Shown piece after piece: positions 1-31,359 of a DNA stretch of 64,000 nt. Where the stretch lies: the IMG/VR virus record IMGVR_UViG_3300047550_003584, positions 12,777-76,776 of that record; one strand, given 5' to 3'. This stretch comes from a virus. The notes below the pieces were generated by a model. That model had not been told where the DNA came from. It saw only the letters and a list, made by a program, of their open reading frames with translations, and made no database searches. Made by a program: the position numbers and the translations under genes. The stretch's first letter is position 1; each line of letters opens with the position of its first letter.

Positions 1-2778
1 ATAGTTGGTGAATTGCGCTCTAGGTATTGGGCGTAATTGAGGAGTTGTTTCTCCAGTAGAAAGTAAACCTTTAGCGCTTTGCGCTGCGGTACTAGCCGTA
101 AGAACTTCACCAGTGCGGCGATCACGTACAACTTGAGGAGCCGTTTCAATACGGGGCGCAAGATATGCAGTGGCCCCTTCGTAGTCATCAGTGATTGACA
201 TTGGATCAACGCCGCCTGTCCCACGAATATCAACTTGTCCAGGAATTGGGCGTGCTTCTTTGGACATATCTACAGCGGGTACCCGCCCTTTTGCTGTTCG
301 TTCATACAGTAAACCGCCTTTCTCGCCAATCTTGACAGGGCGCCCAAACACAGGGCTTTCTTTGGTAACTTGAATAACATTGCTCATAAATTCATGAGCT
401 GTTTTGGGATAGTATTTATTGCCGCTTACTTTTGATGTTTGTGGTTGAAGAATAGGTAACTTGTACCCACGAGCCTGTAAACTCTTGTCTAAAGACTCGA
501 TAATAAAATCGTTATAAGAAATAGCATTACCTATTTCGCTTAATACCTTACCCTGCATCATGCCTTCCTCTAAAAGGTTGGGATGACGCCGAGCAAGAAA
601 CTCACGCTTAACAGAAGGATTATTAAGATATTGATCCTTTGCTTCTTCGGCAAGTTCGGTCAACGTTGCCAGGGGGAGAGAAACGGCTTGTGGTTTTTGA
701 TTCTTAAGAAAAACATAAGGGCCTTTTGAGCCATCCGGATTAGTTGTACGCGTGCCGCGTTGTGCAATTAAAGGCTCTTCTCCGGTAACTTCAGTTGCAC
801 TGGAATAAGCATAATAACGGCCATCACTGCCTTTAACAATACGAGTGTCTTTTGGTCCCACAGCAGCGGTAGACCGTCGTGCTGTAGTTGGTTGTGTCGA
901 CACCATGGCAGAAGGTTCGCCAGTTGCAGGCTGGAAGCCACCAATCAAACGCGTAACAAGCCTATCTTCGTAATCACCTTCCACCATCATGGTTGGATCG
1001 GTAGGTCGTAAGCGCCCACTAGGATCGCGTTCAGACGCGCCTTCAAATACAAGGCGGCCAGTTCCAGGGTCAATCCTGAAACCACGCGACGTATCACCCT
1101 CTTCTGTGCTACGTGTTGGCATCACACGATCAATGCGTTCTTGACGTGTGTAAAGTTCTTCGTTACTACGATTTAACGGACGAACGGCCCTTGGAGATTG
1201 TGAGCCACCAACTGCAAGTTGGTATTGACCTGGGAGATCGGTGCGGCTCTTGCCAGTGCGTTCGTCAAATGTACGACTAAGAGTTAAACCACCAGGGCCT
1301 TCACCTTCACCAAGATCAGTGGCCCCTTCATAATCTTCCCAAGATACGGTCTCAACGTATGGGGTATCACCCGCATACTCGTCATAAACTACCTCTTGGG
1401 ACATTTGTGCGCGACGCGCGGCTTGTTCATCTTTCCAGCCAGGTACCTCAGTCATGCTTGCCCTAGCACCAGGGGTAATCTCGTGCGTTAAATTTCTACC
1501 AACACGGCCCTGTTCAACTCGCAAGGCACTCCCAAGTAGACCACGAATTTTTTCGGTTGGTACTGTTGGATTTAAAAGTAATTGATGTTCGTAGGAGCCA
1601 GGGGTAAAGTTAGCAGCCGCAGAAATACGGTCAGCAATCTCAAGTTTGGATACAGTCGTGGGCGCCGTGCGCTGAGGAGACACATAATTTTTTATAGAAG
1701 GCCCTTGAACGGCGTCTTCAAAATCAGTCATATCCACATCTGCACCAAAGAAACCAGCAGATTCAGGATCTTTAGAAGGACGAAGATCTAAGCCTATTTG
1801 CTTGCCAAAGATTTTTCGTTCTTTTGGCGACATTTCAGAGACGCCGGGAAGATCGCCCCGTGCTCCGGATAAGTTAAAACCTGCAAGAGGAGTATTACGA
1901 GTTTCTTGTTGACGCAAGAAATTACCAAGATCATCAAGCACATGCTCTGGTGGTCCATCGGACCAATCATTTATTTCAAATTCATACGATGCGCGTTTTA
2001 ATGAAGTTGTTGGATCTTCTAAATTTGTTTTTGGAGCACCCACTTGACCCATCTCAGCCATGAGCCTTTGCTGGCGTGGAGTCAATTGTTCAGCAACTCC
2101 TGTATATTTTTCAACAGCAACAATAGGTTTGCTATAACGAACGGAATCTACGTCACGTTGAACTACGGATTCAAGTTTGGAGTCAAGTTGATCCGAGCCG
2201 CTCTCCAGGGAGTCAAGCGTATTTTCTGCAACCACAGGTGTGGTTTTTTGTTGAATAGTAACTAGATCATCAACTGCCGCTCTAACAAAAGATTGGGCGT
2301 CTACTTCAGCAGGAGGAACGTCAAACTCTTCTGTACTTGGTTGTGCACGAGAAGCTGCCGTTACATCAGAAAAAGGAACTTCAACGTATTTAGAAAGGTC
2401 AACTGTAGAAGATTTAACAGCAGCTTTAGGTTGACTAAGGGCAACTTTTGAAGGAGCAGGCTCTGTTGAACGCAAAGGAGTCTCTTTGACCTTGGCAAGA
2501 TCAGTCAGATTCACACCCAAGGGGGCTTGTGATGTTTTTTGCGCCTCTCGCCCACGTAATGCACGGACACCAAGGAACCCACCACCCAAAATGCCAGCGC
2601 CGGCAAGAGCAGCTCCCACCGCACCAAGGAGATTACCGCCTTGATCAGGGGCTTTGAGCTGATTACGGCGAAATTCCAGAACCTCTGGAGCCATTTCAGC
2701 CCTTTCTTCCGGATCTTCTGGTACCGGCACCCCGGTTGCACGGCTGTAGGCGTAAAAATCAGCGGGTGCTAGTGCCAT
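1..2778 (-). CDS. Large hypothetical protein, probably virion/internal protein (>926 aa, runs off the window)
   Basis: Manually translated open frame from ATG at 2778 (MALAPADFYAYSRATGVPVPEDPEERAEM...) to the window edge (...RAQFTNY). Gly/Ala hydrophobic stretch near the N-terminus; TAAAAT box at 2815-2820. Absent from the ORF track because there is no stop in the window. Confidence 0.85.
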   Translation of the reverse strand, partial: MALAPADFYAYSRATGVPVPEDPEERAEMAPEVLEFRRNQLKAPDQGGNLLGAVGAALAGAGILGGGFLGVRALRGREAQKTSQAPLGVNLTDLAKVKETPLRSTEPAPSKVALSQPKAAVKSSTVDLSKYVEVPFSDVTAASRAQPSTEEFDVPPAEVDAQSFVRAAVDDLVTIQQKTTPVVAENTLDSLESGSDQLDSKLESVVQRDVDSVRYSKPIVAVEKYTGVAEQLTPRQQRLMAEMGQVGAPKTNLEDPTTSLKRASYEFEINDWSDGPPEHVLDDLGNFLRQQETRNTPLAGFNLSGARGDLPGVSEMSPKERKIFGKQIGLDLRPSKDPESAGFFGADVDMTDFEDAVQGPSIKNYVSPQRTAPTTVSKLEIADRISAAANFTPGSYEHQLLLNPTVPTEKIRGLLGSALRVEQGRVGRNLTHEITPGARASMTEVPGWKDEQAARRAQMSQEVVYDEYAGDTPYVETVSWEDYEGATDLGEGEGPGGLTLSRTFDERTGKSRTDLPGQYQLAVGGSQSPRAVRPLNRSNEELYTRQERIDRVMPTRSTEEGDTSRGFRIDPGTGRLVFEGASERDPSGRLRPTDPTMMVEGDYEDRLVTRLIGGFQPATGEPSAMVSTQPTTARRSTAAVGPKDTRIVKGSDGRYYAYSSATEVTGEEPLIAQRGTRTTNPDGSKGPYVFLKNQKPQAVSLPLATLTELAEEAKDQYLNNPSVKREFLARRHPNLLEEGMMQGKVLSEIGNAISYNDFIIESLDKSLQARGYKLPILQPQTSKVSGNKYYPKTAHEFMSNVIQVTKESPVFGRPVKIGEKGGLLYERTAKGRVPAVDMSKEARPIPGQVDIRGTGGVDPMSITDDYEGATAYLAPRIETAPQVVRDRRTGEVLTASTAAQSAKGLLSTGETTPQLRPIPRAQFTNY

Positions 2779-2900
2779 GGGTCGTTTATTTGCTTATGTG
2801 ATCCTGTTATTTGTATTTTAGGGTATTAAAACGCACGTAGATGCGTTAAAGTAGTAGCAGAAGACGTAAGAATACCCTGAATCTAGGGATTTAACACGAG

Positions 2901-3107
2901 ATGAACCCTAAAAACCGGGCAGAACGCGTTGTTGCGTTAGATGCAATTACCGAAGAAGCGGAAAAGTTAGCGGCAGGCGGCGCTGATCCCCTTACCGTCA
3001 AGAGTTTTACGGTTGGTGCCAGGAAAGAACTAGCCGATCAACGGCCAGATGTGGAAAATTACTTTGATGCAGCCGTTGCTGCAAAGAAAGCAAAGAACAG
3101 TTTTTGA
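2901..3107 (+). CDS. Small hypothetical protein
   Basis: 68-aa ORF divergent from the large ORF, followed by a terminator. Confidence 0.75.
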   Translation: MNPKNRAERVVALDAITEEAEKLAAGGADPLTVKSFTVGARKELADQRPDVENYFDAAVAAKKAKNSF

Positions 3108-3139
3108 TTTTAGGTAACACAAAAGTAAATTCACATACA

Positions 3140-3167
3140 GCCGGGGATAATACCCCGGCATTTTTGT
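3140..3167 (+). terminator. Rho-independent terminator
   Basis: GCCGGGG-ATAATA-CCCCGGC followed by ATTTTT. Confidence 0.75.
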
Positions 3168-3399
3168 CTGTAAATTAGGGTAAAACCTTAAATAACGCGA
3201 CACTTTTTAGGTTTTGGTACGTTGTGATACAAAAGAAGGCCCCCTATAGGGTCGAAAAAGGATAAAAAATTATCTGAGCCTTCTCCAACACCCCACGCGT
3301 AGCGAAATACGTATAGAAAAAAAGAAAGGTGTGAGGGGTTGAAATAGTTATCGGGGGCTGCGCATCCGTGTAACGCAGAGTACCACCGCATTCAACACC

Positions 3400-3636
3400 A
3401 TGACAGACCGTATGCAGCGTTTTGAGACAGCAGCGGAAGCACTTGTCGCTGGCCGTAAGGTTAGCGTACCAGTTCGTGAGCTGCCACAAGGTAACGTGCA
3501 GGCTTGGCTAGCCGAGCTACGTAGTTACGTCATCTTTGGTCACACTGATCCAGGAGATGAAGTGACTTATCGAGTGTACGTTACCGTTAAGGAAGGCCGA
3601 GCAATTGCTCAGGCCAAGCTGACATACATCGATTGA
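3400..3636 (+). CDS. Hypothetical early protein
   Basis: 78-aa ORF preceded by the TTCAACACC leader typical of this region. Confidence 0.75.
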   Translation: MTDRMQRFETAAEALVAGRKVSVPVRELPQGNVQAWLAELRSYVIFGHTDPGDEVTYRVYVTVKEGRAIAQAKLTYID

Positions 3637-3790
3637 AGGTTACCTCTTCCCCTGGTGAAAGCCAGGGGTTTATGTAGCCCTCAATACCTGCTTCGTTGAT
3701 ACGAATTCGTATCGCGCGTGCGGGTTTTTGGGTATTCGCGGCACCGCTTCGCCAAGAACCGTTCTCGCGCAAGGGATCTCAGCGATTGCT

Positions 3791-3815
3791 CGTCAAGCTG
3801 GACGTTAAACGCAGC
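3791..3815 (+). repeat. Family A pseudoknot-type element (A1, divergent)
   Basis: CGTC-AAGCTG-GACG-TTAAAC-GCAGC; loop GCTG pairs with downstream CAGC. Confidence 0.7.
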
Positions 3816-3840
3816 AGACAACTCGGCGGTTGGTCACGAC

Positions 3841-3874
3841 CTTGGCATCCACACTTCAGTGGTGTAAGACCAAG
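3841..3874 (+). repeat. Family B bulged-stem element (B1)
   Basis: CTTGG-CATCCAC-ACTTCA-GTGGTG-TAAGA-CCAAG; compensatory variant of CTGGG/CCCAG. Confidence 0.75.
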
Positions 3875-3895
3875 CTCAACCTACGGAGTAACACC

Positions 3896-4057
3896 GTGAC
3901 CATCAACCCCACCAAGCTGCTCTCTCGTGAAGAGGTTGGCGACAAGATCATGCTTGAGATCCTTGATCTCCTTGAGCATGGTCATAGCCAGACTCTCGGT
4001 GAGCAGCACCTCCAGGTCATTAAGTCCTACGTGGACGAGATGCTGGAGAACAACTGA
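3896..4057 (+). CDS. Hypothetical early protein
   Basis: GTG start after leader; MTINPTKLLSREEVGDK... Confidence 0.7.
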   Translation: MTINPTKLLSREEVGDKIMLEILDLLEHGHSQTLGEQHLQVIKSYVDEMLENN

Positions 4058-4121
4058 TCCGTTAAAGCGGGTGACCAGGTGCAAACCCTGGTCCAGTTAT
4101 TGCCCCCTGTGGAGATGGGCA
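4052..4121 (+). repeat. Family D T-loop three-way-junction element (D1)
   Basis: AACTG/CAGTT closing stem, CCG-TTAAAG-CGG, GACCAGG-TGCAAAC-CCTGGTC, then a TATTGCCC..GGGCA hairpin. Confidence 0.75.
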
Positions 4122-4142
4122 CCACACACACGGAGAACACCC

Positions 4143-4424
4143 GTGATTGACCTGACTACTGGTTGGGTATCGCATCCTAATGTACCAGGTGGTTTCCACT
4201 TGGTTTACATCGATAGCCTCGTTGGCGAAATCTCTATCGTTACTGGACCCAAGGGTTCAGGACTGATGGCAGCCAACGATCCAGGTAATGAACCTACCTA
4301 TGAGGTATGGTTTCCAGGTATGTGCGACCCGACCGGTTACCTGACTCTTGCCCAAGTGAAAGGCATAATCATGTTCATGCGTCAGCGTGAGCAACAACGC
4401 CTTGCTTGGCAAGATGAAGACTGA
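4143..4424 (+). CDS. Hypothetical early protein
   Basis: GTG start; MIDLTTGWVSHPNVPGG...TYEVWFPG. Confidence 0.75.
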   Translation: MIDLTTGWVSHPNVPGGFHLVYIDSLVGEISIVTGPKGSGLMAANDPGNEPTYEVWFPGMCDPTGYLTLAQVKGIIMFMRQREQQRLAWQDED

Positions 4425-4487
4425 GTCCGTATAAGCGGCATTGGCAGGTGCAAACCCTGCCTTCAGTATTGCCACAATCCAGTGGCA
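4420..4487 (+). repeat. Family D element (D2)
   Basis: ACTGA/TCAGT, CCG-TATAAG-CGG, GGCAGG-TGCAAAC-CCTGCC, then GCCAC/GTGGC hairpin. Confidence 0.75.
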
Positions 4488-4505
4488 CCTACCTTATTCA
4501 ACACC

Positions 4506-4667
4506 ATGACTTACACCGTCATCATCAAGCATCACGACGTATTCTCTCAGTCCTATCTCCAGGGCTGTGAGCAATCGTTTGATACTGAGCAGCAAGCTCA
4601 GGACTACATTCAAACATTTGAGGATTGGGAACAAGATCTCCTGGAGATTGACTTCAATCCTTTCTGA
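4506..4667 (+). CDS. Hypothetical early protein
   Basis: MTYTVIIK..., acidic, 53 aa. Confidence 0.7.
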   Translation: MTYTVIIKHHDVFSQSYLQGCEQSFDTEQQAQDYIQTFEDWEQDLLEIDFNPF

Positions 4668-4728
4668 GTAACAGGCGTGATGCCGGGGGATCGAATCCCC
4701 CACTCAGTATTGCCACAACTCAGTGGCA
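4664..4728 (+). repeat. Family D element (D3)
   Basis: CTGAGT/ACTCAG, GGC..GCC, GGGGG-ATCGAAT-CCCCC T-loop, then GCCAC/GTGGC hairpin. Confidence 0.75.
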
Positions 4729-4748
4729 TTCACCTACACCACACCACC

Positions 4749-4937
4749 GTGATCAAAAGCGAATCCGTATTTGCATCTATCATCGTTACTGCATTTGGGC
4801 TAGGCATCCTTGCTGGCCCAGTCGCTGGGTACTTCATTGATCGGGCAACTGCCAAGCAATGCATCACCCATGACTGGCCTAAGGAGGCTAACCAAGTGCA
4901 TCGTGATTGGTGCATTACCAACGGCTACAAGATCTAA
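4749..4937 (+). CDS. Small membrane protein
   Basis: GTG start; N-terminal TM helix and a Cys pair. Confidence 0.7.
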   Translation: MIKSESVFASIIVTAFGLGILAGPVAGYFIDRATAKQCITHDWPKEANQVHRDWCITNGYKI

Positions 4938-4939
4938 GA

Positions 4940-4987
4940 CTCCTGCTCTGGGGACTACGGTCCCCTCAACAGGACTCAACATCCTGT
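4940..4987 (+). repeat. Family C element (C1)
   Basis: TCCTG...GGGGAC-TACG-GTCCCC...ACAGGA-CTCAACA-TCCTGT. Confidence 0.7.
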
Positions 4988-5009
4988 ATCCCACTGCTAA
5001 CTCAACACC

Positions 5010-5219
5010 ATGTCAATGATCAAGCACTGCACTGTCGTACTTTCCAACGGCAACGTCGTTGGGATGCATGCAAACGAAGCAGATGCAGAAATGCAAGCAA
5101 TGGAGCTGGCATACGAATGGCGCAGACAATCTGACTGCGGCTCTGAAGTACCAGCGCCTAGGCTTGCCGTCCTGTCATTCAATGACTGGATGCAACTGCA
5201 GAAAGAGTTTGCATTCTGA
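5010..5219 (+). CDS. Hypothetical early protein
   Basis: 69-aa ORF with CTCAACACC leader. Confidence 0.7.
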   Translation: MSMIKHCTVVLSNGNVVGMHANEADAEMQAMELAYEWRRQSDCGSEVPAPRLAVLSFNDWMQLQKEFAF

Positions 5220-5220
5220 C

Positions 5221-5293
5221 TCCTGCACTTAACCCTTCCGTTGTGGTATGTATGTACTACGACGGTGGGTTTTCTGCAGGCAATCAAGCCTGC
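5221..5293 (+). repeat. Family C element (C2)
   Basis: TCCTGCA-CTT-AACCC-[long hairpin]-GGGTT-TTC-TGCAGG-N8-CCTGC. Confidence 0.75.
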
Positions 5294-5313
5294 TATCCAA
5301 CTCAACTCAGACC

Positions 5314-5502
5314 ATGACTGCATTACACATCCGCAAGAACATTGCAGCACTGCTGGTCAACACAGCTGCTGCTGTAGAGAATGCCAAGCTTCCTGACAAG
5401 GAGGCTGCTCGTACCAAGCTGCATGACATCCGTTGTCGTGCAGCGGCACTCATGATGCCGAACGATATGGCATTCGTCATCACTCCCAAGAACAACATCT
5501 GA
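5314..5502 (+). CDS. Hypothetical early protein
   Basis: MTALHIRKNIAALL... Confidence 0.7.
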   Translation: MTALHIRKNIAALLVNTAAAVENAKLPDKEAARTKLHDIRCRAAALMMPNDMAFVITPKNNI

Positions 5503-5505
5503 TCC

Positions 5506-5709
5506 ATGTCAAACAATCACTTCTTTGATTCCTGTGTGGCTATCATTCTTGGCACTAGCGTGGGCTTACTCGCTTCTGTTGGAGCGCAGAAGCTTCTCAA
5601 CAGACACTACCAAGCAACGTGCCATGACCGACCAGGACACAATTTGATCTACACCCAAGGATTCTTGGGTGATACGTACTACTGCATCAACAGTAAGTAC
5701 ATGAACTGA
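5506..5709 (+). CDS. Small membrane protein
   Basis: TM helix plus C-terminal C...GDTYYC. Confidence 0.7.
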   Translation: MSNNHFFDSCVAIILGTSVGLLASVGAQKLLNRHYQATCHDRPGHNLIYTQGFLGDTYYCINSKYMN

Positions 5710-5710
5710 T

Positions 5711-5783
5711 CTCTGCACTTAACCTTTCCGTCTTGATACGAATTCATATCGGACGGTAGGTTTTCTGCAGGGTTCTCCCTGCA
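5711..5783 (+). repeat. Family C element (C3)
   Basis: CTCTGCA-CTT-AACCT-[hairpin]-AGGTT-TTC-TGCAGGG-TTCT-CCCTGCA. Confidence 0.75.
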
Positions 5784-5814
5784 CTACACCACACGACACC
5801 ACCAGGACTCAACC

Positions 5815-6060
5815 ATGACTCCTAAAGCTGTTGAACAACTGCTGACCCAAGACGCACGTCTATTGGCTCGCAGAGACTCCCCTGCCATTGACCAAGAGAT
5901 TGAAGAACAGCGTCAAGCTGCTCTCGATCTTTTCTTCCAATGGCAAGATGGGTTAGCCCAGTTTCAAGACCTAGTTCCCTTCGTTGCCATCGTGCAGCGT
6001 AAAGTAGATCTCAACCGGGATCTGCTGCGGTGGGAACGCAAGCAACTGGAACAAGACTGA
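5815..6060 (+). CDS. Hypothetical early protein
   Basis: 81-aa helical ORF. Confidence 0.75.
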   Translation: MTPKAVEQLLTQDARLLARRDSPAIDQEIEEQRQAALDLFFQWQDGLAQFQDLVPFVAIVQRKVDLNRDLLRWERKQLEQD

Positions 6061-6111
6061 CTCTTGCACTGAGGGCCTCCGGGCCTTCTCTGCAGGACTC
6101 AACATCCTGCA
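6061..6111 (+). repeat. Family C element (C4)
   Basis: TCTTGCA-CT-GAGGGCC-TCCG-GGCCTTC-TC-TGCAGGA-CTCAACA-TCCTGCA. Confidence 0.75.
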
Positions 6112-6136
6112 CCTAATCTTTATCTCAATTTAACCA

Positions 6137-6418
6137 ATGGCACTAACACTTACGCCACGTGAAATTTTTGATGCATTGCAACCTATCAATGCAAATTCAG
6201 ATGCTTGTTACTTGGAATTTACAGGTGACATTGTTTATTTGCATTGGACCACAGATAAGGAGAACGCTCAAATGTATGTAGACAACATCTTTGAGTGTTT
6301 AGATATCAAACTCTATGGTCATTGGGTAGACATCTGCGGGCAACACGAACGTGGTACCCCAGTTACATTGCCTAATGCAGCTTTGTTTGATTGTCGTTAT
6401 ATCCTTGCAACCAACTGA
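6137..6418 (+). CDS. Hypothetical protein
   Basis: 93-aa ORF in the operon. Confidence 0.7.
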   Translation: MALTLTPREIFDALQPINANSDACYLEFTGDIVYLHWTTDKENAQMYVDNIFECLDIKLYGHWVDICGQHERGTPVTLPNAALFDCRYILATN

Positions 6419-6419
6419 T

Positions 6420-6623
6420 ATGAGGACAATCTACTCCATGGGCAAGGGCAAGTATATCCATTTGGATTCTTACGGTGAGTCTCATGAGACGCGCCGTTGG
6501 TCTATTGCCATTGCCACCTTCTCCCTCATCATCGCCACCATCACCGCTACAGCGTTGGTTGGCGTTGATATGACACAACTCAATCCTCAACCTATCCAGG
6601 GACAAATCAATGAATCTCGCTGA
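6420..6623 (+). CDS. Small membrane protein
   Basis: MRTIYSMGKG..., one TM helix. Confidence 0.7.
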   Translation: MRTIYSMGKGKYIHLDSYGESHETRRWSIAIATFSLIIATITATALVGVDMTQLNPQPIQGQINESR

Positions 6624-6957
6624 ACACACTCAAGTCCTCGAAGCACGTATCAATGCTTTGATTGATAAGCTGCTCGAGAAGTACCACAAACAGTACGGAG
6701 AACTGGGCATCGAGTTTGACATTGTATGTGGCACTAAGTACTACAAGATCATTCAACGTAACATCAGACGTAACTGTCTTGGTGGCTACGAAGGCAGTGT
6801 CCATGCATTTGTCCACAGACAATCAGGTGCTGTCTACAAGCCTGCTTCGTGGAAAGCACCGGCCAAACACGTACGTTACAACTTGCTTGATGACGTATCA
6901 TATGGGACCTGCCTACACAATGCCGACTGGGCAGGCAGCTATCTGTACATGAAATAG
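6610..6957 (+). CDS. Conserved cyanophage hypothetical protein
   Basis: KYYKI...SVHAFV...GAVYKPASWKAPAKHVRYNLL...ADWAGSYLY motif, common in cyanophages. Confidence 0.85.
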   Translation: MNLAEHTQVLEARINALIDKLLEKYHKQYGELGIEFDIVCGTKYYKIIQRNIRRNCLGGYEGSVHAFVHRQSGAVYKPASWKAPAKHVRYNLLDDVSYGTCLHNADWAGSYLYMK

Positions 6958-6965
6958 CTACAATT

Positions 6966-7005
6966 CCCTGGGCATCCTCACGTAAGTGAGGTATAAGTCC
7001 CAGGG
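6966..7005 (+). repeat. Family B element (B2)
   Basis: CCCTGGG-CATC-CTCAC-GTAA-GTGAG-GTATAAGT-CCCAGGG. Confidence 0.8.
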
Positions 7006-7034
7006 GTTACATCATTTCAACCCAACATCTAACC

Positions 7035-7409
7035 ATGCGCAATCGCATCTCACTCGTCAAAGAAGATCGGATCTGGCATCTTAGGTGCCAGGGCTATGGC
7101 TACGAATCAATCGGCAGCATTGTCAACTGCAATCCTGGTTACATGACGATTATCTTACGTCGTGTAAGGCAGCGTCCACCGATTGAAGAAGATCCGATCA
7201 AACGAGGAAGAAGAACGAACTTCCTAAGTGATGCACAAGTAGATGACATTAGAGCACGCAAGGCCAAAGGCGAGACTTGTCATTCAATCTCCAAGGATTA
7301 TGACTTAAGTGAGTCCGCCATCTGGAACATTGCAAACCATGTCACCTACAAAGAACCAGCTTATGACAGCGGTTATCATTACAACTTTAGTAATCGGCTA
7401 ACACGCTGA
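7035..7409 (+). CDS. Putative DNA-binding protein (tandem HTH)
   Basis: Two HTH-like segments (GYGYESIGSIVNC; GETCHSISKDYDLSESAIWNI). Confidence 0.7.
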   Translation: MRNRISLVKEDRIWHLRCQGYGYESIGSIVNCNPGYMTIILRRVRQRPPIEEDPIKRGRRTNFLSDAQVDDIRARKAKGETCHSISKDYDLSESAIWNIANHVTYKEPAYDSGYHYNFSNRLTR

Positions 7410-7413
7410 TCAA

Positions 7414-7466
7414 CCTGGGCATCCACAATTGAGAACTCTTCTCAATAACGTGGTGTAAGTCCCTGG
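7414..7466 (+). repeat. Family B element (B3) carrying a Fur-box-like palindrome
   Basis: CCTGGG-CATCCAC-[ATTGAGAACTCTTCTCAAT]-GTGGTGTAAGT-CCCTGG. Confidence 0.75.
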
Positions 7467-7495
7467 CTTACTGTCCATCTCACTCAACTCACACC

Positions 7496-7642
7496 ATGAG
7501 AGACCCTAATTTCATTGACGAGCAACGTAACGCTGATTTGCTTGATGCCATGGCTGATCTTGCGTACCAGCAGGAGCAAGCCATGCGTGAAGAATACGAA
7601 CTCAACCCACCAGAACAGGAGACTTACGATGACCAAGCCTAA
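7496..7642 (+). CDS. Small acidic protein
   Basis: MRDPNFIDEQRNADLLDAMADLAY... (48 aa, below the ORF-track cutoff) with typical leader. Confidence 0.7.
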   Translation: MRDPNFIDEQRNADLLDAMADLAYQQEQAMREEYELNPPEQETYDDQA

Positions 7643-8060
7643 GTACACACTACGGCAAGCATGGGATGACGGTGACATCATCGTCATCCTGATCGCAATC
7701 ATCTCAATTATCATCACGGAGTTTGCATCATGTCTTACATCTCAGAACTCAAGAAGTTCTACCCCAAGTCCTACAAAGTGCGTTACGCAGTCAACGCCTA
7801 TAAGGTCCACAAGTACTTCGAACACGAAGATCCAACGGTCATTGTTATCCACGAAGTCAGGCTCTGCTACGGCGGACCAGAGGAAGGTGGATGGTGGTAC
7901 CACGCAGGAGACCCTGTCCTCAGCCACTGCATCTTTTCCAAGAAGCAGGCGATCCAAACCTTCATCCAGTACTTCGAAGAGTACGAGATCGAAGGGCAGC
8001 CGTCTCTTGGAGATACAACAACTCGATCCAACATCGAGCTTAGCTTCTCCAACGAGCTAG
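7629..8060 (+). CDS. Possible membrane protein with Ser/Thr-rich tail overlapping the next gene
   Basis: MTKPKYTLRQAWDDGD plus a TM helix; the tail is in another frame over 7730-8098. Confidence 0.45.
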   Translation: MTKPKYTLRQAWDDGDIIVILIAIISIIITEFASCLTSQNSRSSTPSPTKCVTQSTPIRSTSTSNTKIQRSLLSTKSGSATADQRKVDGGTTQETLSSATASFPRSRRSKPSSSTSKSTRSKGSRLLEIQQLDPTSSLASPTS

Positions 8061-8098
8061 CTAAGGCGTATCCTGAGTCCCGTCCACACTATTGCTAA
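7730..8098 (+). CDS. Conserved phage hypothetical protein
   Basis: YGGPEEGGWWY and C-terminal YPESRPHYC motifs. Confidence 0.8.
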   Translation: MSYISELKKFYPKSYKVRYAVNAYKVHKYFEHEDPTVIVIHEVRLCYGGPEEGGWWYHAGDPVLSHCIFSKKQAIQTFIQYFEEYEIEGQPSLGDTTTRSNIELSFSNELAKAYPESRPHYC

Positions 8099-8101
8099 GC
8101 C

Positions 8102-8344
8102 ATGCCAGCAACAACACTACCTGCACTCAGCATCAATCAACGCAACCTCTACGCATACTTCCTGAATCACAGGAAGAAGTATGGGAATACACCATGTTTT
8201 GTACCTAAGCTTCCAGCGCAAAGCTCAAGGCTTGAGCAATATCTCCAGGCCTTGGTGCGACTGGAAGAATACGGATTGATACGTGTAGACAGAAGCAGTG
8301 ATAACTACACAGCATGGATCATGCTTGCGCCTAAGAGCGCATGA
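8102..8344 (+). CDS. Hypothetical protein, winged-helix-like
   Basis: LSINQRNLYAYF...ALVRLEEYGLIRV. Confidence 0.7.
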   Translation: MPATTLPALSINQRNLYAYFLNHRKKYGNTPCFVPKLPAQSSRLEQYLQALVRLEEYGLIRVDRSSDNYTAWIMLAPKSA

Positions 8345-8420
8345 CGTAGGTATTTATACTTAATATTGTTTGCTATTGGAAAATAGCCAATACATGCCAA
8401 TACTTCAGTCATAGCCTCAC

Positions 8421-8463
8421 TCCTGGGCAGCACCGATGTAAGTACGGTGTATAAGTCCCAGGA
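8421..8463 (+). repeat. Family B element (B4)
   Basis: TCCTGGG-CAG-CACCG-N9-CGGTG-TATAAGT-CCCAGGA. Confidence 0.8.
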
Positions 8464-8491
8464 TTTACCTCAACCCAACTTCACATCAACT

Positions 8492-8779
8492 ATGGAACAA
8501 GCTAAGAAGTATCCAGCAATTGACTGGACCAAAAATGAGTACCATCAACTGCAGCTGGTAGTTGATGCACTCAAAGCCATTTGTGCTCGCGAAGATAAAC
8601 GTCATCAAATGGACGAGCATCTCGATCCACACATGCGTAACGTTATCGATGAAGTGATCGGTATGTTAAGCGATGAGCTTGACTACGATCCAACGCCTAA
8701 CGAACCTGGTGAACCACCCATGACAATGAATGAAATGCACAGCGCTGCATGGAAAGAACATCAGGAGATGCATCGGTAA
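8492..8779 (+). CDS. Hypothetical protein
   Basis: MEQAKKYP...GEPPMTMNEMHSAAW. Confidence 0.75.
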   Translation: MEQAKKYPAIDWTKNEYHQLQLVVDALKAICAREDKRHQMDEHLDPHMRNVIDEVIGMLSDELDYDPTPNEPGEPPMTMNEMHSAAWKEHQEMHR

Positions 8780-8797
8780 CAGCCGACCAGGGGGACT

Positions 8798-8811
8798 AGT
8801 ACATAAGTACT
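8798..8811. promoter_or_regulatory. Cyanobacterial LexA-box-like palindrome
   Basis: AGTAC-ATAA-GTACT matches RGTACNNNDGTWCB; intergenic. Confidence 0.5.
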
Positions 8812-8924
8812 TCCCCCCTCAAACTCCCCCGTTGGAGCACCAGGGAATCCTTGGATTTATATAGGAAATACTTATGTCCCAATCCTTGACTTCTCTGGTA
8901 TTTATATCTAATTAACCTTTGATC

Positions 8925-9428
8925 ATGACACACCTTCCATTGCCTTCACTTGATTGGCTTAAGCAATATCTTGCTGTTGATCCAAGTCAGCCTAGTGGTT
9001 TGATCTGGATCAAGAACTATGCCAACAGGAAGGCGCAAACAATGGCAGGTTCCGTGAATACAAACGGATATTATCAAGTCAGAATCAAAGGTAAACTTTA
9101 CCTAACTCATAGAATCATTTATTTTTTACTAAACGAGAGAGACCCAGCTGACCAGGTTGTTGATCATGTTTACTCCAAAGCTAATCATGTAGATGTTCGT
9201 TGCGCAAACTATGTTCAGAATTCTTTCAACTCTAAACATCAAGCGACTGTTACATCGAGTGATTACAAAGGAGTTACATGGGATCGCAACAAATGGAAGG
9301 CTCGTATTTCCTATGGAGGAATAACTTATGACTTAGGAAGATTCGATGATGAAATCAAAGCTGCTCAAGCATATGACCTCAAAGCTGTCGAGCTTGATCC
9401 AGAGTTTGCATTTCTTAACTTTCCATGA
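8925..9428 (+). CDS. HNH endonuclease with AP2 domain
   Basis: HRIIY..VVDH..N..N; YKGVTW..KWKARI..LGRFDDEIKAAQAYD. Confidence 0.9.
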   Translation: MTHLPLPSLDWLKQYLAVDPSQPSGLIWIKNYANRKAQTMAGSVNTNGYYQVRIKGKLYLTHRIIYFLLNERDPADQVVDHVYSKANHVDVRCANYVQNSFNSKHQATVTSSDYKGVTWDRNKWKARISYGGITYDLGRFDDEIKAAQAYDLKAVELDPEFAFLNFP

Positions 9429-9480
9429 GGGGCTTGCGCTCCCTGGTAGACTTACCTCGTTACTCAACTCATCTCAACTC

Positions 9481-9690
9481 ATGACTGACAACACTCCTTG
9501 CATACCAGACTCCATGGATATGCAAAGACTTCAAGCTATGCAACTTGTTGCCAAGATGAAGGAATCTGCAGAGAGACATGGCATTGGATTCATTGGTGGA
9601 TTCATCTCACCTAACGGTGAGAAGTTTGTAATGACCAACATGACAAACGATGATGACATCAATGCACTAATGCCGGAGGATCTCAAATGA
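9481..9690 (+). CDS. Hypothetical protein
   Basis: MTDNTPCIPDS..., CTCAACTC leader. Confidence 0.75.
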   Translation: MTDNTPCIPDSMDMQRLQAMQLVAKMKESAERHGIGFIGGFISPNGEKFVMTNMTNDDDINALMPEDLK

Positions 9691-9926
9691 CTCAACAACA
9701 CCCTGTTGTTCCAACCAAATATCTATTTGATGCTTGGCGTCAACAATACATAGAACATGAGAAAGACTTTAGTGAACTTCTTACTGAAGCTGCACAGTGG
9801 GGTGCAGATATTGAATTAGAAGAATGCTGTGCATTATTCAAATCTAATTCGGTATGTGGCACCAAGTTCCAACGTGACTCTTCTGTGCGGGATCTACGCA
9901 ATAAACGTAGACCGAAACCGAAGTAA
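9687..9926 (+). CDS. Modular 'QHP..P / AAQWGAD.EL / RRPKP' family protein, copy 1
   Basis: Shares blocks with 15031 and 17397. Confidence 0.8.
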   Translation: MTQQHPVVPTKYLFDAWRQQYIEHEKDFSELLTEAAQWGADIELEECCALFKSNSVCGTKFQRDSSVRDLRNKRRPKPK

Positions 9927-9993
9927 ACAACATTGACAGTATCAATTACTGGTACTGAAGATGAACTTGAACAACTCATTCGTAAACTCAAAG

Positions 9994-10191
9994 ATGACCG
10001 ACAAATCTCCGTTAAATTTTGACAAGACTATTGCTGGATTCAACGTCACTGAAAAGGGCGTTCAATCGTACAGCAAATCGTTTCAACTTGGTCCGTTTCA
10101 ACTCACACTCAATGCTCGTGAGTCTGGTGTCCGTGGATCAATCAGTATCCCTGGCACAGGATTAAGCAAACGAAACATTAAATTATTCTAA
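9994..10191 (+). CDS. DUF4236-like small protein
   Basis: KSFQLGPFQLTLN...GSISIPGTGLS. Confidence 0.6.
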   Translation: MTDKSPLNFDKTIAGFNVTEKGVQSYSKSFQLGPFQLTLNARESGVRGSISIPGTGLSKRNIKLF

Positions 10192-10192
10192 A

Positions 10193-10228
10193 GATCCTGG
10201 GCATCCTTACGGTGTAAGTCCCAGATCC
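10193..10228 (+). repeat. Family B element (B5, minimal)
   Basis: CTGGG-CATC-CTTAC-GGTG-TAAGT-CCCAG. Confidence 0.8.
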
Positions 10229-10251
10229 CGTCCACTTACTCAACTCAACTC

Positions 10252-10437
10252 ATGTCTGCTTACGTCGAGAACCTTACCCTGTTTGATCGCATCAATCTTG
10301 CTGCCTGCGCACAACGCAGGGCATCAGCAAATGTGTTGGATTCAACACGATTTAAAGGCGAGTTTGACACGGCACGTCTGTGGACTAAGTATCGCCTTGT
10401 CAAGACCACTACCTATTCCTACATCGAGGACAACTAA
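10252..10437 (+). CDS. Hypothetical protein
   Basis: 61 aa, CAACTCAACTC leader. Confidence 0.7.
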   Translation: MSAYVENLTLFDRINLAACAQRRASANVLDSTRFKGEFDTARLWTKYRLVKTTTYSYIEDN

Positions 10438-10688
10438 TGACAGTACTTGCTATTGAACACACATCATTTACTGAGACTCATGTCACAGTTACAGCAGTTG
10501 TTGACGAAATGCGCCTGCTCTATCGGGCAACTTACCTTGACCCTGAAGAGTGGGCTCCTGCATTGTGTCAAGCAACTATTGAACTGGATCCAGAGGAACC
10601 GATTCCTCTTGACGAAGATGGCTTCTGCAGTTATCTTGATCAGCTCGATCCTCAATGGGAATTACTAGACAAGGATGACATCGAATGA
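10437..10688 (+). CDS. Hypothetical acidic protein
   Basis: ATYLDPEEWAPALC motif; coupled stop/start. Confidence 0.75.
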   Translation: MTVLAIEHTSFTETHVTVTAVVDEMRLLYRATYLDPEEWAPALCQATIELDPEEPIPLDEDGFCSYLDQLDPQWELLDKDDIE

Positions 10689-10867
10689 TTGGATTCTCAA
10701 TTGAATTCAAACGTTGGTACTTTGTACTACGTGGTCCTAAAGGTCGCGTCTATCTAGCTACTGGCTTTGCTAAGCACATGCCAGTATTTGTTAATAACCG
10801 TAGCATTCATCTTCATGATCTTACTGATGATGATATGAGTTACGGCACTTATCGTTGCGACCTTTAG
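10685..10867 (+). CDS. Hypothetical protein
   Basis: ATGA overlap with the previous gene. Confidence 0.65.
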   Translation: MIGFSIEFKRWYFVLRGPKGRVYLATGFAKHMPVFVNNRSIHLHDLTDDDMSYGTYRCDL

Positions 10868-10872
10868 TTAAT

Positions 10873-10901
10873 CGTCCTGGACATGACGTTAAACTGTCCA
10901 G
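10873..10901 (+). repeat. Family A element (A2)
   Basis: CGTC-CTGGACAT-GACG-TTAAAC-TGTCCAG. Confidence 0.85.
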
Positions 10902-10920
10902 TTCAATTACATTTTGCCCA

Positions 10921-11220
10921 ATGGAAATCAATTCTCCAACACCTCCTTTAGATCTTGTCAATGATTGGATGACGCATTGGTATGACGACAACCAAACAGA
11001 TGAACTGCAATATGTGTACGTTACAAACAAAGCTGCAATGTGGGGTGCCATCTGGGGTGCTACCAATGCTTTGGAAACAGCTATCAAAGACACGGCACCT
11101 GTTCATTGGCGTGTAGCAGGTGGCGCAGAAGATGGCCAACAGGTAGTGCGTGTTATTGATCTAATGGAATGGCTTGAACAATTCCGCAAAGAATACGAAG
11201 AAAAGATGTCTTGTAATTAA
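10921..11220 (+). CDS. Divergent/chimeric member of the TPP..LV..W / AA.WGA family
   Basis: TPPLDLVNDW...KAAMWGA, then an unrelated C-terminus. Confidence 0.75.
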   Translation: MEINSPTPPLDLVNDWMTHWYDDNQTDELQYVYVTNKAAMWGAIWGATNALETAIKDTAPVHWRVAGGAEDGQQVVRVIDLMEWLEQFRKEYEEKMSCN

Positions 11221-11225
11221 TCAAC

Positions 11226-11253
11226 CGTCCTGGACATGACGTTAAACTGTCCA
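11226..11253 (+). repeat. Family A element (A3), identical to A2 over 28 bp
   Basis: CGTCCTGGACATGACGTTAAACTGTCCA. Confidence 0.85.
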
Positions 11254-11280
11254 TTCCACCACACACCACCACACCATGCA

Positions 11281-11823
11281 ATGAAACCTAGGCCACTTCC
11301 ACCTGTTGACTACTTGCAACAAATGTTTTATCTAGATACAACATCTCCTAGTGGTTTACGTTGGCTTAAAGCGCCAAGTGCCTGGACCAAAGCTAACTCT
11401 GTTGCAGGTGTTCAACGTACTAAAGATCATTACTGGCGTGTTCGCTGGAAGTATCAAGGTAAAGCGGTGGATTACATGGCTCATCGGATTGTGTATGCAC
11501 TACAACATGGCTCTGATCCAGGGGATATGTTCGTAGATCATATACACAATGACAAAGACAACAACAAACCATTGCGATTGGCTACTAAATTACAAAACTC
11601 ACATAATCGTAACGGTCGCAAAAACACAAGCAGCATTTACAAAGGTGTCTGTTTAATTAAAGCGACTGGTCGATGGCGTGCATCCATTCGTGTTGATAAA
11701 CAATTCAAACACATTGGTGTGTACGCAACACAAGAAGAAGCAGCCTTGGCTTACAACCAAGCTGCTTTGCTAAACTTTGGTGAGTTTGCTCGCCTTAATC
11801 AAATCAATTCAACCGAGAACTAA
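11281..11823 (+). CDS. HNH endonuclease with AP2 domain
   Basis: AHRIVY..VDHIHNDKDNN..LRLAT..QN..N; YKGV..WRASI..IGVYATQEEAALAYN. Confidence 0.92.
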   Translation: MKPRPLPPVDYLQQMFYLDTTSPSGLRWLKAPSAWTKANSVAGVQRTKDHYWRVRWKYQGKAVDYMAHRIVYALQHGSDPGDMFVDHIHNDKDNNKPLRLATKLQNSHNRNGRKNTSSIYKGVCLIKATGRWRASIRVDKQFKHIGVYATQEEAALAYNQAALLNFGEFARLNQINSTEN

Positions 11824-11825
11824 TC

Positions 11826-13562
11826 ATGCAATTTGCTCTACCATCTAATCTGCAAACTGAACTGATTGCCTATGATCCAACGCTCAAGGTGTTGGCTAAG
11901 CAAGCTAACAAACCTGCAGCCAAGAAACCTACATATCCACTTGGCAAGATTCCTTGCTTGATACCAACGCATATTGTGCGTGAAGCTGATCAGCAAGATG
12001 TAATTGCTCAGATCAATCAGCGTCCAGCACCACAGCGTTATCAAGTGTTTACTACGCCTGTAGATGTAGCAACACCACAGGCTAGGCTTAAGGTCATTGC
12101 CATCCTGTATCACTACGAACAAGTGTGGTATGCAGCATGGCTACCTTCTAAAAAGGAGAAGGATGATTATGTGTTTGGTCATGCATATGCATTCAAGAAC
12201 ACATCAACTACACATAAAATTGCGCCAACTTGGATATGGAATAGTAAAGATGATTGCGTTGTCCACGACATTGGTCGTGGCTCACAACTCTTTGTGCATA
12301 GCAAAGTTGTAACTAAAGCAGATATCTGTGGTCAAAACTATGATAGCTGGCGTAGTTATCCATGGCGAGCAGGTAACCTTTACTGCCAGAAGGGTTATAC
12401 AATTCGTGACAATGTTGTTACTGAATTTGATAACAGCCTAAGGGAAGATCTCCCAACATGGGAGGATTCACGTGGATTGTTTGACAGAATACGCTGCAAG
12501 AATATCTTTGATGCAGCAGAAATACCGTCAATGATGTCAAAACATCTTGACGAAACTCAAGGCTTGACTGTTGATAACTTCATTGCTGGTTCACTTGCAT
12601 TCAAAGAAGAGCATGGTTATAGCTCCATAACATACTCTATTGTCACGAGGATTCAGCACATTGTCGCTAAACCTACTATCAAGAAACTATTGCAAGCAGA
12701 GTTGAATCGTAGTATTGATGCATACAATGATCCTAATAACAAACATCAGCAACCTATTAAGCAAGGCTTTTTAACTTTTGTACAGATTCTTAACTCAATT
12801 GAGTGGATCAATAACATTTGGCCAGACTGCCCTATTGATTACTATCAGACTTACTTCAAGGAACTCAAGTATCTTCGCTTGACTGAAGTACGTGTACGCA
12901 ACGGAGCTACACAAGAACCTTGTTTAATTAATTGGTTACGTGCGCACATGCCTATTGCATCATTGTTTACAATCATGCGCAAGTACTTGGATAGACAACT
13001 TACTGAATACAATGGTCGCTGGGTTGATAGTGATGTTGGTTACCAGCGTCAACGCTTTGGTGAACTAAACGATACATTCTCCATGATGAGTAAGATCTTG
13101 GATGCAGGTAAAACACTAGAGCCACCAAAGCGTTGGCGACTGACTGAGTTCCATGACTACGTGCAATCTGAGGCATGGAAGATTGAGAATCCAAAGGAAT
13201 CTTTACGGCAAGATTTATTCCCTGAACCTATTAAAGTCAAGCGTCTTGATAATGTATGGACATTCTTCCAGCCTATTGATACACATCAACTATCTATGTG
13301 GGGTCAAGCCGTACGCAATTGCGTTGGCTCTGCATCCCACTATGCGGATGACATCAAGAAACGTAAGCACTTCATTGTGCTGTGCATGATTGATAGCAAG
13401 CCCACCTTCACAATTCAATTGGTTGTGGACCAGGGCATGATGTCTGTCAAACAGATTGCTGGTGTTGGTAACCAGCGATTGACTGACGACCAACGTGAAG
13501 CTTACACAGAAGCTTTCCGTGAGGTCTTGCAGCAACGCGAGAAACAGCTAGCATGTAGCTGA
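11826..13562 (+). CDS. PcfJ-domain protein
   Basis: C-terminal FHD..., QPIDTHQLSMWGQAVRNCVGS..Y...TFTIQL...QIAGVGN pattern typical of PcfJ-like domains. Confidence 0.7.
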   Translation: MQFALPSNLQTELIAYDPTLKVLAKQANKPAAKKPTYPLGKIPCLIPTHIVREADQQDVIAQINQRPAPQRYQVFTTPVDVATPQARLKVIAILYHYEQVWYAAWLPSKKEKDDYVFGHAYAFKNTSTTHKIAPTWIWNSKDDCVVHDIGRGSQLFVHSKVVTKADICGQNYDSWRSYPWRAGNLYCQKGYTIRDNVVTEFDNSLREDLPTWEDSRGLFDRIRCKNIFDAAEIPSMMSKHLDETQGLTVDNFIAGSLAFKEEHGYSSITYSIVTRIQHIVAKPTIKKLLQAELNRSIDAYNDPNNKHQQPIKQGFLTFVQILNSIEWINNIWPDCPIDYYQTYFKELKYLRLTEVRVRNGATQEPCLINWLRAHMPIASLFTIMRKYLDRQLTEYNGRWVDSDVGYQRQRFGELNDTFSMMSKILDAGKTLEPPKRWRLTEFHDYVQSEAWKIENPKESLRQDLFPEPIKVKRLDNVWTFFQPIDTHQLSMWGQAVRNCVGSASHYADDIKKRKHFIVLCMIDSKPTFTIQLVVDQGMMSVKQIAGVGNQRLTDDQREAYTEAFREVLQQREKQLACS

Positions 13563-31198: not shown

Positions 31199-31282
31199 CA
31201 GGGCAAGAGTATCCGCCTACGATAATCTACGATGCGGCCTAGGGGACTCTTTGTTTAATGCAACGTTCCTTGTTGCACCCTG
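31199..31282 (-). ncRNA. Unassigned structured RNA
   Basis: CAGGG/CCCTG closing stem; TGCAAC/GTTGCA, AAGAGT/ACTCTT and CCGC/GCGG stems. Confidence 0.65.
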
Positions 31283-31283
31283 A

Positions 31284-31354
31284 TCGGTCGTGCTGGAATC
31301 GAACCAACTTTCTCGTGCATTGTCTGCCCGTCCTTACCAATAGACTACCGACCG
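31284..31354 (-). tRNA. tRNA-like RNA with aberrant anticodon arm
   Basis: Acceptor CGGTCG/CGACCG, D arm GTCT-ATTGGTAA-GGAC, T arm GTTGG-TTCGATT-CCAGC; anticodon arm short and lacking U33. Confidence 0.7.
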
Positions 31355-31359
31355 AGTGA

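Follow-up and report, generated by a model that had tools for sequence, protein, structure and literature searches.

Four spacers between small early genes of a cyanophage carry an RNA element, here called Family C, in which one central strand (C) can pair either with an upstream strand (U) next to the stop codon of the preceding gene or with a downstream strand (D) ahead of the next leader. Covariation among relatives shows that selection acts, in the sense RNA, on both of these mutually exclusive helices. We tentatively favor, stopping somewhat short of calling it probable, the reading that Family C is a stop-anchored bistable intercistronic module that would be toggled by ribosomes, would be folded either way and would have RNA processing or stability as its output.

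Setting and architecture of the four elements

The window, that is, the whole stretch of 64,000 bases analyzed here, corresponds to positions 12777-76776 of an IMG/VR virus record that is 76,776 bp long and has a completeness rating of 97%. In protein searches, its DNA polymerase showed 69% identity and a 509-aa protein 55% identity to Synechococcus phage S-EIV1, a cultured polar freshwater cyanophage, and these similarities mark the window virus as a related freshwater cyanophage. A megablast search with window positions 3000-12000 gave no nucleotide match to named phages. About 25 small co-oriented ORFs lie on the + strand at ~3400-11300, separated by structured spacers and then G-poor, C/A-rich leaders without Shine-Dalgarno sequence; a polycistronic transcript across this region is assumed. 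Four of these spacers constitute Family C (Table 1).

At gathering threshold, Rfam reported only tRNAs in the window, and no Rfam match overlapped the Family C elements at E-values up to 5 (positions 2700-11500). Two tRNA genes, Leu(TAA) and Pro(TGG), were called by both ARAGORN and Rfam; ARAGORN called a third, Cys with anticodon ACA, at 31282-31355 on the − strand, which the Rfam tRNA model did not report at gathering threshold. We found no paper on Family C elements, and the S-EIV1 record is annotated with CDS features only.

Table 1. Family C elements, their strands and the adjoining leaders (window coordinates)
Feature	Position	Strand	Sequence, remarks or basis
Copy 1, element	4935-4987	+	Basis: folding, sequence, orthologous junctions
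Copy 1, stop	4935-4937	+	UAA; outside lower stem, following GA pairs
Copy 1, lower stem	4938-4945 with 4970-4977	+	GA.UCCUG with CAGGA.UC
Copy 1, U strand	4941-4945	+	UCCUG (plus GA 4938-4939)
Copy 1, apical hairpin	4950-4965	+	GGGGAC-UACG-GUCCCC
Copy 1, short hairpin	4969-4974 and 4982-4987	+	Central ACAGGA, loop CUCAACA, D strand UCCUGU
Copy 1, leader	4988-5009	+	G-poor, C/A-rich, no Shine-Dalgarno; short hairpin to start codon
Copy 1, next ATG	5010	+	
Copy 2, element	5217-5293	+	Basis: sequence, folding, refolding barrier
Copy 2, stop	5217-5219	+	UGA; within stem
Copy 2, U strand	5221-5227	+	UCCUGCA
Copy 2, long apical hairpin	5231-5271	+	
Copy 2, central strand	5275-5281	+	UGCAGG(C)
Copy 2, short hairpin	D strand 5288-5293	+	GCAGGC, loop AAUCAA, D strand GCCUGC
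Copy 2, leader	5294-5313	+	Same kind as copy 1
Copy 2, next ATG	5314	+	
Copy 3, element	5707-5783	+	Basis: sequence, folding, relatives
Copy 3, stop	5707-5709	+	UGA
Copy 3, U strand	5711-5717	+	CUCUGCA; one G.U pair
Copy 3, apical hairpin	5721-5762	+	Apex GAUACGAAUUCAUAUC
Copy 3, short hairpin	5766-5772 and 5777-5783	+	Central UGCAGGG, loop UUCU, D strand CCCUGCA
Copy 3, leader	5784-5814	+	Same kind as copy 1
Copy 3, next ATG	5815	+	Further CAGGACUCAAC before ATG, 5803-5814
Copy 4, element	6058-6111	+	Basis: sequence, folding, orthologous junctions
Copy 4, stop	6058-6060	+	UGA; within stem
Copy 4, U strand	6062-6068	+	UCUUGCA; one G.U pair
Copy 4, apical hairpin	6071-6088	+	
Copy 4, short hairpin	6091-6097 and 6105-6111	+	Central UGCAGGA, loop CUCAACA, D strand UCCUGCA
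Copy 4, leader	6112-6136	+	Same kind as copy 1
Copy 4, next ATG	6137	+	

The original prediction had described the three-strand layout in four copies, and all four are present, with its two examples, CTCTGCA/TGCAGGG/CCCTGCA and TCCTG/ACAGGA/TCCTGT, exact in the sequence. The upstream strand, expected 1-4 nt from the stop codon, lies 1 nt away in copies 2-4 and 3 nt away in copy 1. For each of the four copies, folding predicts as minimum free energy structure a long hairpin starting at the stop codon (-21.9 to -35.4 kcal/mol, z -3.5 to -6.0). Its lower stem, in which the stop triplet, one unpaired pyrimidine and the 7-nt U strand face the central strand, a pyrimidine and UCA, encloses an internal loop and the apical hairpin; the predicted folds have lower stems of 7-10 bp and upper stems of 6-17 bp, with the internal loop between them. 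In the short hairpin a loop of 4-7 nt connects the central strand to D, and the stop codon pairs with the first bases of this loop: the whole UGA in copies 2 and 4, and the GA of the stop in copy 3. In copy 1 the same loop bases pair with the GA that follows UAA. The two folds thus overlap in the entire 5′ arm of the short hairpin and in part of its loop.

At copy 3, the long fold leaves D free, and D is then predicted to pair with the CAGGACUCAAC ahead of the ATG; some copy-3 orthologues have CUGGAGA at this site instead. From these predicted pairings a local four-strand coupling is possible at this junction. As a general feature a fourth strand near the start was rejected, only copy 3 and some orthologues having CAGGACUCAAC.

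Conservation and covariation of the competing strands

The 17-mer CAGGACTCAACATCCTG, the core of the short hairpin, served as search query and was found in 73 IMG/VR stretches, of which about six are unrelated chance matches; the long-hairpin pattern was found in 24. In 185,579 bacterial and archaeal genomes the 17-mer gave 44 matches, evidently by chance, none with Family C architecture, the contexts being unrelated coding sequence or simple terminators. A loose genome-wide finder produced many false positives and extra filters were applied; its counts are circular with regard to pairing and hence were not used as evidence for it. For an unbiased set, we took the orthologues of the genes upstream of copies 1 and 4 and read the sequence after their stops, which avoids selection on the tested feature. 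Behind the copy-4 gene the module was present in 30 of 32 distinct junctions, one of the others having none and one an inserted gene. Seven orthologues of the copy-1 gene were followed by the module and three by a different structured module. The instances collected, ~55-85 nt in size, number 135 distinct ones, spread over dozens of contigs from uncultured freshwater phages, and S-EIV1 adds one more. The same element follows unrelated genes. The S-EIV1 copy, CCCTGCA/TGCAGAGC/GCTCTGT, lies on the minus strand of record KJ410740, just below position 42715; it has an altered central strand and keeps both partners.

Homologues keep both partners of the central strand, as the predicted competition requires, and the two covary. 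In 44/44 distinct members the central strand can form a hairpin of 6 bp or more with D, versus ~3% of shuffled tails. Among sense-strand matches selected only on stop, U, apical hairpin and C, D was present in 120/120, as against 0/30 antisense readings of the same palindromes, and the U strand was present in 62/62 instances of the 17-mer.

In the alignment of the lower stem (A1, 44 sequences), 95.5% of cells were paired, a value reached in 0/500 shuffles, although the sequences are related and hence not independent, and shuffle statistics, here and in the following, overstate significance. Two-sided changes occurred at 5/10 pairs, with 44 such cells versus 9.7 in shuffles, and a control with slid partners left 23-48% paired. 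The short hairpin (A2, 38 distinct sequences) was 91.2% paired, with two-sided changes at 4/7 pairs, again unequaled in 500 shuffles. Three-way covariation is seen at orthologous junctions, with the sets TCCTGCA/TGCAGGA/TCCTGCA, GACTACA/TGTAGTCC/GGGCTAC and GTTTGCA/TGCAGAC/GTCTGC, and further in TTCTGCA/TGCAGAG/CTCTGCA, TTCTGTA/TACAGGA/TCCTGTA and TCCTGa/cCAGGA/TCCTGg. The 135 instances hold 53 distinct U/C/D triplets and 10 central strands, and their helices contain G.U pairs in 80 and 54 cells; triplets and wobbles together indicate that the pairing takes place in sense-strand RNA. U equals D in only 15/135 instances, and the partners are thus not merely homogenized repeats. The spread of triplets across different apical hairpins and genes argues for several independent compensatory events, an estimate based on this diversity.

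The stop codon takes part in the pattern. Stop and loop triplets covary (UGA/UCA in 87, UGA/UUA in 13 and UAA/UUA in 3 instances), and the lower stem has a pyrimidine-pyrimidine mismatch in 127/135, with a Watson-Crick pair almost never at this position. Apical hairpins are freely exchanged in relatives, also for short G+C hairpins, and their loops are mainly UNCG (UACG, UUCG) or GNRA, which suggests RNA rather than DNA as the selected form. The leaders of the 135 relatives consist of 36.5% C, 33% A, 24% U and 6% G, and the end of the D arm mostly lies 18-31 nt from the next ATG. A pyrimidine-purine-pyrimidine triple helix (UCCU.AGGA-UCCU) as the general fold was rejected, since some covarying central strands, UGUAGUCC for instance, do not consist of purines alone.

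Further repeated structures surround the four elements. One module, at window positions 4422-4506 and 4665-4750, consists of a closing stem in which UGA takes part, a hairpin of the CCAGGUGCAAACCCUGG type whose loop has 7 nt and, ~22 nt upstream of the ATG, the hairpin UUGCCAC...GUGGCA. It adjoins Family C junctions and replaces Family C at the orthologous junction in the relatives L095-L097; module families hence look interchangeable. A second repeated junction family, CCUGGGCAUCC-[variable hairpin]-GGUGUAAGUCCCAGG, occurs at 3839-3870, 6966-7005, 7413-7465, 8424-8465 and 10196-10228 and also in S-EIV1. In many relatives the near-perfect 16-bp palindrome GATACGAATTCGTATC is found at the tip of apical hairpins, and in the window it lies at 5733-5750; it occurs once outside Family C, at 3696-3711, and might be a protein site at the DNA or RNA level.

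Energetics, position of the stop and output

All energies given here are nearest-neighbor predictions. In keeping with the idea of two competing folds, the gap between them amounts to only 0.1-3.7 kcal/mol in the window: with the first 12 nt from the stop barred, the short fold costs 2.3, 0.1, 2.0 and 3.7 kcal/mol in copies 1-4. Among 44 relatives this cost has a median value of 2.75 kcal/mol (range 0-7.3). A ribosome at the stop had been suggested to favor the downstream fold, and when 12-15 nt are masked the short hairpin is indeed predicted in 4/4 copies, the masked fold always consisting of the apical hairpin plus the short hairpin. Refolding barriers were estimated at 6-12 kcal/mol, which would allow interconversion in milliseconds to tens of seconds.

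While a stop codon occupies the A site, the ribosome prevents the following ~9-10 nt from pairing, as known from toeprinting and ribosome-helicase work, and in most members it would thus have to unwind the lower stem. In 99/144 instances the upstream ORF ends on the UGA of the stem, at -4 relative to the U strand, and in 120/144 its stop falls in or beside the lower stem, at -9 to -3 relative to the U strand; four further ORFs have a TAA stop at the base of the apical stem. In some 10-15% of relatives the ORF actually ends 10-38 nt ahead of the U strand, and the TGA is still kept, out of frame. Such stops are beyond the reach of a terminating ribosome, which counts against sensing. The modules at orthologous junctions in L095-L097, in which competition of three strands is not obvious, likewise count against our preferred explanation.

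The consequence of sensing is a different matter. Mean predicted unpaired probability of the start region (-18 to +12) in the 135 instances was 0.594 in the free RNA and 0.604 with 13 nt masked, and 0.607 for RNA that begins at the central strand. Classical coupling through unmasking of the start site is hence not supported: the start is not predicted to be paired at rest and freed by the ribosome. The translation-sensing switch originally envisaged is thus supported in its geometry and predicted energetics, and no translational output is apparent. Recoding at the stop was considered as well. Gene-60-like bypass or UGA readthrough was dropped, the codon before the stop not being conserved, and at copy 4 a second in-frame TGA follows three codons later.

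Based on these folds, we propose the following course of events. In the long fold, the stop codon, a Y-Y mismatch and the 7-nt strand would pair with the central strand as an interrupted helix of ~20 bp, closing off a freely exchangeable and very stable apical hairpin. In the short fold, this hairpin would be retained and the central strand would form a 6-10-bp hairpin with D that ends 18-31 nt before the AUG. A ribosome at the embedded stop would unwind the lower stem, D would capture the freed central strand, and the RNA would return to the long fold after ribosome release. Hence, the junction would be folded with or without upstream translation. The likeliest output would be processing or stability of both flanking cistrons rather than gating of the downstream start, with the long helix as a nuclease-recognized or protective structure and the short hairpin as a cap-like structure at the 5′ end of the downstream message.

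Alternative explanations and known systems

A processing signal that involves no sensing, the main alternative, would account for the three strands equally well as the ribosome-toggled junction, and we regard it as possible, if rather unlikely. The long helix would be cut on its 3′ side by host RNase III, or RNase E would cut beside it; the upstream product would keep the apical hairpin as a 3′ stabilizer, and the downstream product, devoid of the U strand, would fold the central strand onto D as a 5′-terminal protective hairpin. Selection on both mutually exclusive helices would be explained in this way. The layout is suggestive: a 10-bp lower stem with Y.Y mismatch, an internal loop of 2x2 to 4x4 and an upper stem add up to ~17-27 bp between early cistrons, and the end of the short hairpin keeps a fixed 18-31 nt from the AUG. 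There is precedent in the T7 early precursor, which has five RNase III signals in which internal loops direct single-strand cuts that leave stabilizing 3′ hairpins (PMC3867540). Like T7 R0.3-R1.3, Family C elements are intercistronic early-operon hairpins with upper stem, internal loop and lower stem spanning about two helical turns (~20 bp in the predicted folds), and a cut on the 3′ side would give the upstream message a stabilizing hairpin. They differ in that there is no sequence relationship, that Family C is known from predicted folds with cleavage putative, that the stem contains a stop codon and the 3′ arm has a conserved third strand as alternative partner, and that the host is a cyanobacterium. 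Processing alone leaves unexplained that ~90% of members include a stop triplet in the stem and that the fold energies are nearly equal. Moreover, with only 7 + 6 bp flanking a 4x4 loop, copy-1-type members would be short substrates for RNase III. A Pfam search found no RNase III gene in the phage, whereas the same search matched RNase III in the Synechococcus elongatus control genome.

The elements could also be linkers for recombination at the DNA level whose conserved flanks permit cassette swaps, with RNA folds as a secondary feature. They resemble the PeSLs of T4-type phages (PMC2839356, PMC4122927), in which a conserved stem-loop likewise belongs to composite elements repeated between small accessory early genes; a location at sites of cassette gain or swap may be a further common trait. 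In Family C, too, unrelated genes precede the same element, and apical hairpins as well as whole module families are swapped at orthologous junctions. One junction outside the window (L129:1226-1500) has gained an extra ORF of ~57 codons (ATG 1266, TGA 1437) that is flanked by a duplicated gene end (~20 nt), TGA, U strand and first bases of the apical hairpin; this duplication looks like the mark left when a cassette was acquired through recombination at the element. PeSLs, for which such a role has precedent (PMC2839356), combine an early promoter with a terminator, whereas Family C is a covarying bistable RNA pairing without detectable promoter: no sigma-70-like site was found within the four elements with an E. 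coli-type consensus, by which a cyanobacterial promoter could be missed. A promoter reading was also rejected on this ground, together with the free replacement of the apical region by short G+C hairpins. A PeSL-like linker cannot explain the RNA covariation, since selection on RNA pairing is evident from the compensatory changes, the many G.U pairs and the UNCG loops; in addition, the D partner is confined to the sense strand and U and D are not homogenized. We thus consider a mere linker improbable.

A third view holds that an RNA-binding protein of phage or host recognizes the short hairpin, which the lower stem would mask. Its loop is CUCAACA, the commonest, in 49/135 instances and most loops begin with YUCA, but in junctions whose selection did not involve the loop they are highly varied in sequence and 3-9 nt long, and a candidate protein was not found, so that we rate this view as very unlikely. 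Mimicry of an anticodon loop by CUCAACA was discarded, the loop not being conserved in the unbiased sets.

The least probable reading, to which we give hardly any credence, is that of a leaky intrinsic terminator or attenuator in which apical hairpin and U-rich tail terminate unless a ribosome at the stop blocks them: many apical hairpins do lie between A-rich and U-rich runs (CUUAACCC...GGGUUUUCU), a terminator scan flags the apical hairpin of copy 2, and only this one, and to our knowledge cyanobacteria lack Rho, which would favor such a device, but within 8 nt after the apical stem at least 4 U are found in only 21/135 and at least 5 U in only 2/135 instances, copies 1 and 4 lack a U run, what comes after the short hairpin is the C/A-rich leader instead of a U run, and the D strand would be left without a role. 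Attenuation by termination is thus weakly supported at best.

The ribosome-toggled junction, our preferred reading, has parallels in the trp and erm leaders and in MS2 coat-replicase coupling, in which likewise one strand has two rival partners and a ribosome on the first decides. In contrast to these, the Family C folds neither terminate nor sequester the downstream start, neither alternative helix being an intrinsic terminator, and the ORF that would do the sensing encodes a full-length gene product instead of a leader peptide. With lambda sib/tI, Family C shares that sequence beyond a hairpin lengthens it, so that the longer double-stranded target exists only in read-through RNA; it differs in that terminator function is unsupported, that there are many elements per genome and that a third strand competes. 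Family C might even represent a new class of RNA switch, with the terminating ribosome as its 'ligand', that reports upstream translation and sets cleavage or survival of the neighboring messages, a proposition that we consider doubtful and, for the present, unlikely.

Very few mRNA punctuation signals of phages are understood beyond T7, T4 and lambda, and for cyanophages we found none. Family C elements are small, abundant and marked by three-way covariation, which makes them a tractable model for structured junctions in polycistronic cyanobacterial messages. If they are processing sites, they would be the first candidate host-nuclease signals for the S-EIV1-like lineage. If ribosome-driven flipping is real, they would offer a natural portable part that couples translation to RNA fate. 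The switch would then be a Rho-independent link from translation to the fate of the mRNA, set cistron by cistron, and such a link would operate in phages whose hosts lack Rho and initiate translation independently of Shine-Dalgarno sequences.
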